This document shows positions 16,017 through 34,072 of a DNA stretch of 64,000 bases, piece after piece. Numbering within the stretch: the first letter of the stretch is position 1; every line of letters starts with the position of its first letter. The notes beneath the pieces were generated by a model. It saw only the letters and a program-made list of their open reading frames with translations. It ran no database searches and had not been told where the DNA came from. The DNA comes from Saccostrea echinata (taxonomy: Eukaryota), in assembly GCF_033153115.1 (NCBI RefSeq), contig NW_026889805.1:13702001-13766000 (forward strand), given 5' to 3'. The position numbers were made by a program, and so were the translations under genes.

Positions 16017-16383
16017 AGAATGACTATCATCAATCTGGAAAATAGACAAATTAGGTATGTATTTTTGCTGCTCATGAATTAAAAAAGTACAACAAAATAC
16101 CAACCTTTTCTTGATTTGTTTTATTTTTTGCAGGGAATATTGTTATTATTCAGGAGAACTGTATTCTTTTCCTAATACTCCTGTTATTTTATTATATATC
16201 TCTATATTAAAATACAACATCCAACCATGTCTTACTTTAAAGTAATGATTCTACTTCCCAAAGACAATACTTCTCTCCCAGACTTTTACTAATCATAATG
16301 ATCATAATGAGTAACTTTGTGGTCAGTTGCATTGTGTTTAGATAGAATAGTCATCGAAACCATCAACTCTGTGAAATATATAG

Positions 16384-16856
16384 AACAAGCATTCTGAGAG
16401 CATTGCATTAGCAATACTAGTCCTCTACCGGCAAGTGTAATCTGGTTCCCGTTAAGAATTGAAAATGCCATAAATCCGCCAAAAATCAATGAAGCGGGAC
16501 GAAATGCAAACTTGACCTATAACTAATCAAGGTAAAGTGACTTAGCAAAAAATCAGCTCAATATCTGAAAGCGTTTAGAAGAAAATTGCGGAAAACCCCT
16601 AAAAATTGAAAAGGCCGTAATTCCGTAAAAAATCAATGAAACGGAACGAAATGCAAACTTGATATGTAACTCATCAAGATACACTCACATACCAAAAATC
16701 AGCTCAATATCTGCAAGCGTCTAGGAAAAAAGTGCGGAAAACCAAGTGGGACAGACTGACAGAGGGACAGACAGATAGACGGACAGACAGACAGACAGAC
16801 GGACAGACTCAGAGGAAACCTATAGTCCCCTCCGGTTTCACCGGTAGGGGACTAAA
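16384..16856 (+). mobile_element. HINE (DINE-1-like layout)
   Basis: Subterminal AGTCCTCTACCGG, two core repeats, (GACA)n tract and 3' hairpin AGTCCCCTCCGGTTTCACCGGTAGGGGACT. Inverted relative at 49943-50254 and a fragment at ~11080-11257. Confidence 0.75.
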
Positions 16857-18973
16857 AAAGAGTATTTACGGAGATATGAATAGAAACGGGTGTGAATCAT
16901 AAGCAGAACTTTAATATAGAATCGTTATGAATAAATATACTAAAGTCTGTCCCACGGTACCAAGGACCTCACTTTTCGCCTCATATCTCAAAATGTATAA
17001 ATACCTTGGCCTTCAAACTAGGTTCGATCGATAGATCATTTTTTTTCCAAACTTCCTGCATTTATCCGAACCCTCGAGTTCAACCGGTGTATTGACACGG
17101 CGGCAAATTCAAAGTCTACGGGGATTTAACATGGTAAACTCGTCCATTAGCGTCAAGATCACGGGGCAGGAAACCAGTTTATCGAGGGAGTAGTCGTTCT
17201 TTCCAAATTAAAATTACAAAATATCCTGAAAATTCAACGAAAGTAATTCAATGTGATTTGGTAAATAATATAAGTATTGTTTTGCATTCAAATATATTTT
17301 GACGAGTTTTCTCATAAAATGAGAGAAAATAATCCGAATTCAATGCAGTACAAGTTGTGGATATTGAGGTCACGCATTTCCTCTAGAAACGGATGTTGAC
17401 ATGGTGCAAGAATGTGTTATTTACAGCTTCATTTGTTGAAAATGTAGTAAGATGGTAAGTTGTTGTCCTTTTCTTTATTTTATACCATACATACACCTAA
17501 GAAAGAACTGTTTCAAATGCTAAGAATAAGTCAAAATGTACGCACAAGTGCCCCATAATATGTTACATGTCTGAGAAAGAGAGATAGAGAGAGAGAGAGA
17601 GAGAAAAAACCGAAAACTGACATTTTATCAACTTATTTAATAAAACTATTAGGAAAAAAAGAAAGCATACAAATACACCTTTTAATTATTATAACAATGA
17701 CTCTCTTTTTTATTAAAAGCTGGTAGATCTTTATTTATTCATTTTATTGCATGATTATGTACATACATGTATATGATGTATAGTCTGTCCCAGGGTACCA
17801 AGGACCTCACTTTTCGCCTCATATCTCAAAATGTATAAATACCTTGGCCTTCAAACTAGGTTCGGTCGATAGATCATTTTTTTTCCAAACTTCCTCCATT
17901 TATCCGAACCCTCGAGTTCAACCGGTGTATTGACACGGCGGCAAATTCAAAGTCTACGGGGATTTAACATGGTAAACTCGTCCATTACAGGTCAAGATCA
18001 CGGGGCAGGAAACCAGTTTATCGAGGGAGTAGTCGTTCTTTCCAAATTAAAATTACAAAAAATCCTAAAAATTCAACAAAAGTAATTCAGTGTAATTTGG
18101 TAAATAATATAAGTATATTTTTGCATTCAAATATATTCTGACGAGTTTTCTCATGAAATGAGAGAAATAATCCGAATTCAATGCAGTACAAGTTGTGGAT
18201 ATTGAGATCACGCATTTCCTCTAGAAACGGATGTTGACATGGTCTGGTGCAAGACTAGACTGTATTATTTACAGCTTCATTTGTTGAAAATGTAGTAAGA
18301 TGGTAAGTTGTCGTCCTTTTCTTTATTTTATACCATACATACACCCAAGAAAGAACTGTTTCAAATGCTAAGAATAAGTCAGAATGTTTGCATAAGTGCC
18401 CCATAACATGTTACATGTCAAAGAAAGAAAAAAAACGAAAACTGACATTTTTTTATCAACTTATTTCAAATCATAAAACTATTAGGAAAAAAAGAAAGTG
18501 TACAAATACACCTTTTAATTATAATTACAATTACTTTTTTTATTAGAAGCTGGTAGATTTTTATTTATTGATTGAAATGCATGATCATGTACATGTAGGT
18601 CGATCTACTTTCACTTTGAACATTTCATGCATTTGGCAGTCACTATCTATATGATCCATAACAAGCAAAATTTTACACTTATGTGAAGTGTCAGCACCTT
18701 GACGAATCTTTATACAGTTTTATATATATAACAAATATTTTGGACACTCAAGATTTTTTTTTCTGAACTTTTTAGTTTTTTTTTTTTACAAGACTGATAG
18801 AGTTCTAAGGGTCTTCTGTACTGTTTTAACATACAGAGCTATTGGATATTGCTAGTGTATAAATATATAAATAGATGTTACATGTTGATCGATGCAGTCC
18901 AGATTTAACTATATTTCAAGAGTAAATTAACTTATCTACTGCATGTTTTGCCCAAGATGAAAAATCAACATAA

Positions 18974-33600: not shown

Positions 33601-33875
33601 TAAAATCAACTTCATTGCTAATTTTATAGATTAGAATAGGGCAAAAAAAATTCTGATTTTAATGGAGAGAGCTTATAGATGAGTGCATTTTTTCGTTTGA
33701 AGTTTTTAAAAGATTGAATAAAGAGATAATTTTGGCTTAAATGTTCCATATACTCGTGATTAAATGTCTAAGAAATAACTGCAGTTACCCCAGCTGAAAT
33801 CTTACTAACAATACACACTTGTATGTAAATGTTTAAGAAAATTTCATATTCATATTTTCAACCATGTTTACTTAC

Positions 33876-34072
33876 CAAGAATGACGATCCGCTCCTCTAT
33901 TTTTCTCTGAAAGAAGGAGAAGAAGCAGATCGTCAACCTTGGCTAGCGATTTCAGATTCATATCCAATCAGAAAAAAATCTATTACTCTATAAATATTAA
34001 GTTAACTTACGTTACACGTTCCTTATCGAGATTAATCCATCACAAATTTAAAATGAAATGAACTTTCGGTTT
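33876..34072 (-). promoter_or_regulatory. Putative promoter and two 5'-UTR exons of gene 3
   Basis: On -: AAACCGAAAGT (34072-34062); an exon ending 34011 with a GTAAGT donor; a 104-nt intron ending CTTCTTCTCCTTCTTTCAG; a 31-nt exon 33906-33876 followed by GTAAGT. Confidence 0.55.

Follow-up and report, generated by a model that had tools for sequence, protein, structure and literature searches.

Gene content of the HSPA12 cluster

The analysed window is a 64,000-nt stretch of the Saccostrea echinata assembly (contig NW_026889805.1, positions 13,702,001 to 13,766,000). It contains four HSPA12 genes and one fasciclin-domain gene; the features discussed here are collected in Table 1. When the exons of genes 2, 3 and 4 were joined at GT-AG ends, the translations matched the respective RefSeq S. 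echinata proteins with 0 mismatches. Gene 3 consists of four coding exons and encodes 582 aa. Since its spliced frame gives the RefSeq protein, gene 3 is an intact, annotated gene, and a sequence-only reading made before this analysis was right to regard its coding frame as undamaged. The intact frame is expected because the transposon insertion described below lies outside the coding exons. The RefSeq number of gene 3 is 135 apart from the numbers of genes 2 and 4.

Gene 4 formed the sister clade of gene 3 in a protein tree with 18 members (support 0.97). Pfam searches with single exons returned no family for any of five exon pieces; full-length relatives of the gene 3 protein carry PF00012. 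Tandem expansion of HSPA12 genes is known in bivalves, with 89 HSPA12 genes described in Magallana gigas (PMC11268181). The S. echinata locus resembles that expansion in being a tandem cluster of multi-exon genes encoding about 580 aa, whereas promoters and 5′-UTR introns are not treated in the available text of that report, in whose main text the word "promoter" has 0 occurrences.

At 6,807 nt, the third coding intron of gene 4 is longer than that of gene 2 (849 nt) or gene 3 (1,858 nt), and nested inverted repeats fill it almost entirely. The same window thereby offers a precedent, within a RefSeq model, for an intron filled by repeats.

Searched as a protein, the ATG exon of gene 3 had 36 longer matches and 97 of similar length, the best of the latter being 65% identical. 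None was a transcript-derived gene 3 copy with a start that would reveal an upstream exon. In a metagenome scan, 233 candidate stretches gave six loci, at 29-46% identity, none of them an oyster orthologue. Ten sequencing runs were listed for 11400-16100, an interval in which 1,665 of the 4,671 31-mers lie fully within known exons. The best two runs contained 0.31 and 0.24 of the words, which is not evidence for junctions.

Table 1. Positions of genes, candidate exons, mobile elements and shared sequences in the window
Feature	Position	Strand	Remarks
HSPA12 gene 1	ATG 237, continues past window edge	-	
HSPA12 gene 2	ATG 6466	-	XP_061165028.1
Gene 3, last coding exon	11418..12475	-	contains stop codon; GT-AG, XP_061164893.1 match
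Gene 3, third coding exon	14334..14490	-	spliced protein match
Gene 3, second coding exon	15337..15555	-	spliced protein match
Gene 3, ATG exon	15702..16034, ATG 16016	-	acceptor 16036-16035, use predicted
3′ host part of proposed intron	16035..16942	-	two GTRAG sites (16688, 16235)
Small HINE-like element	16384..16859		147-nt tandem units and GTCY-type microsatellite
Outer TIR element	16943..33530		16,588 nt with load; TIRs 16943-17132 and 33340-33530
Inner element, same family as outer	17781..27922		10,142 nt
Passenger element, 2.5 kb	22170..24685		short inverted ends, sits in (AT)n runs; sense-strand shared motif at 23123-23113
Passenger, 439 nt	25111..25549		157-nt tandem units; inner element only
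HINE-like passenger	29558..30603		present only in outer element; tandem units of 165 nt; ends approximate (BLAST-block gaps)
Promoter-like element end	33092..33335	-	TGACGT at 33271 and 33263, AAAATGGC at 33335, CpG o/e 1.6; gene 3 strand
Candidate 5′-UTR exon of gene 3, 31 nt	33876..33906	-	pyrimidine tract and CAG before, GTAAGT after; alternative acceptor 33904
Candidate first exon of gene 3	34011..34125	-	3′ end set by GTAAGT; 5′ end about 34125 if TATA consensus at 34155 is used
16-mer common to gene 3 far side and gene 2 upstream	34034..34049 and 8078-8063	-	only two copies in window
Shared motif AAANCGAAAGT, candidate gene 3 copy	34062..34072	-	fits IRF consensus AANNGAAA
Shared motif AAANCGAAAGT, other upstream copies	312-302 (gene 1), 8148-8138 (gene 2), 34279-34289 on + (gene 4)		
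HSPA12 gene 4	34322..43108, ATG 34322	+	XP_061165031.1; head to head with gene 3

A transposon nest upstream of the gene 3 coding exons

The interval between the ATG exons of genes 3 and 4 is occupied largely by two TIR elements of one family, one inside the other. The TIRs of the outer element are identical at 189 of 190 positions and are flanked by a duplicated TA at 16941-16942 and 33531-33532. Those of the inner element are identical throughout (190/190), and its duplicated TA lies at 17779-17780 and 27923-27924. At the empty site of the outer element, 12 AT-rich bp form a perfect palindrome around the central TA. The inner copy has no interruption at the corresponding site, from which the order of events follows: the inner element inserted into the outer one. 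Without the inner element the outer one is 6,444 nt long, passengers included. TIR identity gives no measure of age here, since TIRs, unlike LTRs, are not renewed upon insertion. In a global alignment of the two copies only three large passengers were resolved; the other passengers were defined from gaps between BLAST blocks.

A nest of two related copies could also arise in the assembly, if the haplotypes of one element had been left uncollapsed. High heterozygosity troubles oyster assemblies (PMC7992393), and the dot plot of the nest resembles two tandem duplications. Against such an artefact, the two elements bear separate TA duplications. The TIRs of the inner and outer elements agree at 186-187 of 190 positions, and three diagnostic bases pair within each element and differ between the elements. 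Furthermore, the backbones are 71-96% identical in BLAST blocks, i.e. 4-29% different, and carry different passengers. We therefore consider an assembly artefact very improbable.

No Pfam family scored above the cut-off in the 66 stop-to-stop frames scanned out of the 90 listed (at least 48 aa), and the lack of a DDE/D transposase among them is expected for a non-autonomous copy. Four exon-like pieces of the element, searched as proteins, had no credible relative. The seven weak matches of the element protein search rested on repeats (two of the seven inspected), and the Atlas yielded no usable match. A TIR 23-mer had 0 matches in viral contigs and Rfam gave 0 matches across 16000-34400. An exon chain drafted inside the element was dropped, as several of its guessed boundaries were one base off or low-scoring.

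The TA duplication and the TIRs, whose length is inside the cited range of 20-1,900 bp, recall non-autonomous IS630/Tc1/mariner elements as described in the available parts of two sources (10.1101/656579; PMC7325037). The backbone of about 6.4 kb, however, compares with a typical 1-3 kb, no DDE/D transposase was found in the frames scanned, and the exon-like pieces lack relatives. TLEWI elements have introns and no TIRs, whereas the present element has TIRs. Because no transposase was found and the length is atypical, we assigned the element to no superfamily despite its Tc1/mariner-like termini and target site. Rich DNA-transposon loads are known from bivalves (PMC10294476; PMC7992393).

The small repeat in the host sequence next to the nest has a second copy near 49937-50254. 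This small element and some of the passengers resemble Cg_HINE, the non-autonomous Helentrons of the Pacific oyster, in their GTCY-type microsatellites and arrays of 147-165 nt units (PMC7492417); Cg_HINE comes from another oyster genus and the likeness was judged from the published description only. A subTIR, an IR, a 3′ palindrome and a TT insertion without duplication were seen by eye, for 16384-16859 only.

Candidate 5′ exons of gene 3 and their splice signals

The ATG exon of gene 3 opens 18 nt before its ATG, immediately after a TTCCAG that ends at 16035. The sequence-only reading had concluded from this acceptor that an upstream exon is obligatory. The acceptor is indeed present, but the obligation does not hold, as no good acceptor precedes the gene 4 ATG. 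Ahead of the 16034 acceptor, a branch-point-like YTRAY begins at 16054, and a branch-point-like site also accompanies the acceptor at 33906 on the far side of the nest. There, the 31-nt segment with its pyrimidine tract and GTAAGT, and the second GTAAGT after 34011, were confirmed, and all coordinates given in the sequence-only reading proved correct. Read in the frame of the gene 3 ORF, the 31-nt candidate exon contains a stop codon; it has no ATG. On the minus strand the two host segments contain a single TATA consensus, that at 34155.

Joining 33876 to 16034 would define an intron of 17,841 nt, or 1,251 nt once the element and one TA are removed, in agreement with the earlier estimates of about 17.8 and 1.2 kb. 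About 476 nt of this remainder is the small HINE-like repeat. The signals of a spliceosomal intron are present, namely a GT donor, a branch-point-like site, a pyrimidine tract and a YAG acceptor.

Splice sites were scored with an approximate weight matrix. By this measure the acceptor at 33906 ranks 2nd of 3,324 minus-strand AG sites. The acceptor at 16034 ranks 54th and beats seven of the nine protein-verified acceptors of the cluster. The two host donors rank 54th and 83rd of 3,449 GT sites. As an acceptor-donor pair the 31-nt exon scores 15.0, versus 14.0 for the best pair inside the nest, and is the top pair of the interval; the same scan found no comparable pair in 16035-16942. Within the proposed intron, 16 acceptors outscore 16034 and 20 donors outscore 33876. 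Such decoy splice sites are normal in long introns.

The S. cucullata orthologue of gene 3 is represented by three RefSeq accessions for one protein (XP_062582269-71), that of gene 4 by one. In RefSeq, UTR splice variants give several accessions for a single protein. The three accessions fit UTR splice variants of gene 3, which could instead differ in the 3′ UTR.

Even with ancestral exons at 33.9-34.1 kb, the element, which is in sense orientation, might trap the gene 3 transcript or replace its promoter and leave the allele silenced or re-wired. The transcript could be spliced into the element or polyadenylated early, or it could start within the element and be spliced from a donor at 27489 or 33098 to 16034. 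The strong donor after 33098 in its promoter-like end is kept in the inner copy after 27489, and these donors score 6.3, versus 4.3 and 3.6 for the host donors. Promoter-like motifs and a CpG excess adjoin the TIR, so that this end may have promoter function, and a shared-motif copy lies at 23123. The first strong acceptor past the host donor is that at 32039 (6.7), and the nest holds 40 sense-strand AATAAA. In mammals, sense-oriented intronic elements near exons form the disruptive class according to the part of PMC3088655 available, and here the element lies 342 nt from the donor. Against trapping, the gene 3 frame is intact and its RefSeq model is coding. The strong acceptors of the nest (score 4) have no strand bias, with 15 on the minus and 17 on the plus strand. 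The exon-like pieces lack protein relatives, so that any exon chain in the element is only putative. In addition, there was time for the two elements to diverge and take up passengers, though perhaps before they arrived here. We regard trapping or promoter replacement as unlikely, although it is the leading alternative.

A motif shared upstream of the four HSPA12 genes

A copy of the motif AAANCGAAAGT lies upstream of each of the four HSPA12 genes, the copy assigned to gene 3 being on the far side of the nest. The window contains six matches versus 0.26 expected, a figure that is post hoc. In a hold-out search that left out gene 3, 11-mers with one wildcard were collected if genes 1, 2 and 4 all carried them upstream. 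This returned one motif, in the form of three overlapping patterns. Any shared pattern occurred in 9 of 200 shuffles and three patterns in 0 of 200, with the 2-kb upstream region of gene 2 having been picked when its motif position was already known. The hold-out motif recurs on the gene 3 strand at 34072, which was matched in 4 of 2,000 shuffles of that segment; the passenger copy at 23123 is an extra occurrence on this strand.

With the element removed, the distance from motif to ATG is 1,456 nt in gene 3 versus 1,672 nt in gene 2, and that from the shared 16-mer to ATG is 1,428 versus 1,597 nt. In genes 1 and 4 the motif lies only 65 and 33 nt from the ATG. A short 5′ end therefore occurs in the cluster, given these distances and the lack of a good acceptor there in gene 4. 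The 16-nt identity with the gene 2 upstream region, which the sequence-only reading had offered as support, is real. As evidence it is weak and only modestly above chance: when 33531-34321 was shuffled, a match of that length to the region arose in 6 of 500 trials; an AT-rich 14-mer is likewise common to 16035-16942 and the gene 2 upstream region.

Gene 3 could accordingly start within 16040-16942, with a short or intronless 5′ UTR like that of gene 4. The nest would then be intergenic, and the far exon-like sites would be there by chance or stem from divergent non-coding transcription at the gene 4 promoter. Such a start would suit the missing acceptor of gene 4, the sister paralogue, and the ease with which shuffles match the 16-mer. 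The whole far segment could be a gene 4 promoter, given a TATA consensus at 33989 on the plus strand. Weak donors are frequent among the real ones of this cluster, four of the nine verified donors scoring 0.2 or less, so that a nearby first exon of that kind could exist, e.g. before the GTRAG at 16235. On the other hand, 16017-16942 contains no shared motif, TATA consensus or donor scoring at least 4. A good acceptor with a branch-point-like site stands directly before the ATG exon, and removal of the element restores a gene 2-like spacing. A near start thus seems to us a minority possibility, and rather doubtful.

As to the identity of the motif, its fit to the consensus AANNGAAA upstream of all four genes is a likeness to an IRF-binding element, and oysters have IRF1-like genes inducible by poly(I:C) (consensus and IRF1-like genes from the accessible part of PMC7819612). 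The consensus by itself has 174 matches in the window. The copy at 34072 contains one GAAA, whereas an ISRE has two or more. This copy also falls within the upstream region of gene 4 and might act for that gene in reverse; IRF-type sites work in both orientations. IRF control of the HSPA12 cluster, as suggested by the shared motif, is a lead, not a result.

Probable origin and fate of the proposed enlarged intron

The candidate exons at 33.9-34.1 kb are probably ancestral 5′ exons of gene 3, whether or not the element now traps the transcript. Indirect evidence, namely the hold-out motif, the gene 2-like spacing and the three orthologue accessions, favours a gene 3 promoter and UTR exons on the far side of the element. 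We also think it somewhat more probable than otherwise that the nest separates the coding exons of gene 3 from its likely promoter and two non-coding first exons, and that a predicted 5′-UTR intron of 17.8 kb is spliced out whole. The placement of the nest in a 5′-UTR intron by the sequence-only reading is favoured by the same three observations, but that reading had left trapping by the sense splice sites and poly(A) hexamers of the element unweighed.

By this swollen-intron account, cut-and-paste insertion would have placed the outer element at a TA in an intron of 1.25 kb, with 342 nt between it and the donor and 906 nt between it and the acceptor, and a diverged family member would then have entered a TA within it. 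Transcription would start at about 34.1 kb from a divergent promoter common to genes 3 and 4. Splicing would join 34011 to 33906 and 33876 to 16034, with exon definition overriding the decoy sites.

Elements dominate the proposed intron, 16.6 of 17.8 kb, as in the intron expansions outlined in the accessible portions of PMC3058033 and PMC3088655. [quoted passage not shown] Those cases involve LTR retrotransposons, whereas here the intron is a predicted 5′-UTR intron in a bivalve and the load is one self-nested DNA-transposon family. Transposon-driven intron growth and HINEs are already known, and the locus would be one more such case. Our literature search, for which most subscription journals were outside the scope, returned nothing about this locus, nor about IRF elements in the promoters of bivalve HSPA12 genes.

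A further reading makes the nest a regulatory switch. Genes 3 and 4 would share a divergent IRF-type promoter, and a segregating sense element would uncouple gene 3 from it or supply a promoter, a donor and an IRF-type site of its own. We hold this to be improbable; if true, alleles would differ in immune or stress inducibility.

If the swollen-intron account is correct, the nest represents ordinary intron swelling. Its use would lie in annotation, with the gene 3 promoter placed 18 kb away beside that of gene 4. What deserves following up is the common motif, along with any regulatory effect that the insertion may have. Should the insertion segregate and alter expression, it would be a natural allele for studying regulatory diversification of a tandem stress-gene family. 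The motif common to the upstream regions of four HSPA12 paralogues suggests that the HSPA12 expansion of bivalves may be tied to IRF-type immune control, a link that can be tested.

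Regions upstream of the HSPA12 paralogues

An 11-nt motif fitting the IRF consensus is common to the four HSPA12 paralogues (genes 1-4) and lies upstream of each on the sense strand. Around the motif, genes 1 and 4 are identical at 19 of 20 nt. Upstream of gene 2, a donor-like GT immediately precedes the 16-mer at 8078, which is shared with the candidate exon region of gene 3. Since additional candidate donors occur upstream in gene 2, its 5' exons remain candidates. Four 53-aa proteins clustered with the gene 3 protein (XP_061164893.1) in the database are unrelated and were disregarded as a clustering error.

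Coordinates of features in the window
Feature	Position	Strand
Motif copies	312-302, 8148-8138, 34072-34062	-
Motif copy	34279-34289	+
Gene 2 candidate donor, full consensus, score 9.0	after 9966	-
Gene 2 candidate donor, GTAAGT	6822	-
Second inverted-repeat nest, in gene 4 third coding intron (6,807 nt)	35290-41915	
Exon-like frames, outer element	30950-33100	-
Exon-like frames, inner element	24800-27500	-
428-nt block, outer element	31373-31797	
428-nt block, inner element	25550-25975	
Fasciclin-domain gene(s)	46500-58700	both
Assembly gap (128 N)	61560-61687	
Palindrome (93 nt)	62223-62315	

Repeat nests and neighboring features

A second nest of inverted-repeat elements fills the third coding intron of gene 4. 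Its arms of ca. 1 kb (35727-36733 and 38698-39642) are composed of 21-nt units and are 87% complementary. The multi-exon fasciclin-domain region matched PF02469 in both pieces scanned; an assembly gap and a palindrome were also observed.

In the nested transposons, both the inner and the outer element carry exon-like frames with cysteines and a conserved donor, which look as if they were derived from an intron-containing element gene. No credible relative was found by a Pfam scan of 66 of the 90 listed stop-to-stop frames of at least 48 aa or by protein searches with four exon-like pieces. Because a 428-nt block is 96% identical between the two elements, as compared to 71-90% for most adjacent blocks, the sequence suggests gene conversion between them at this block.
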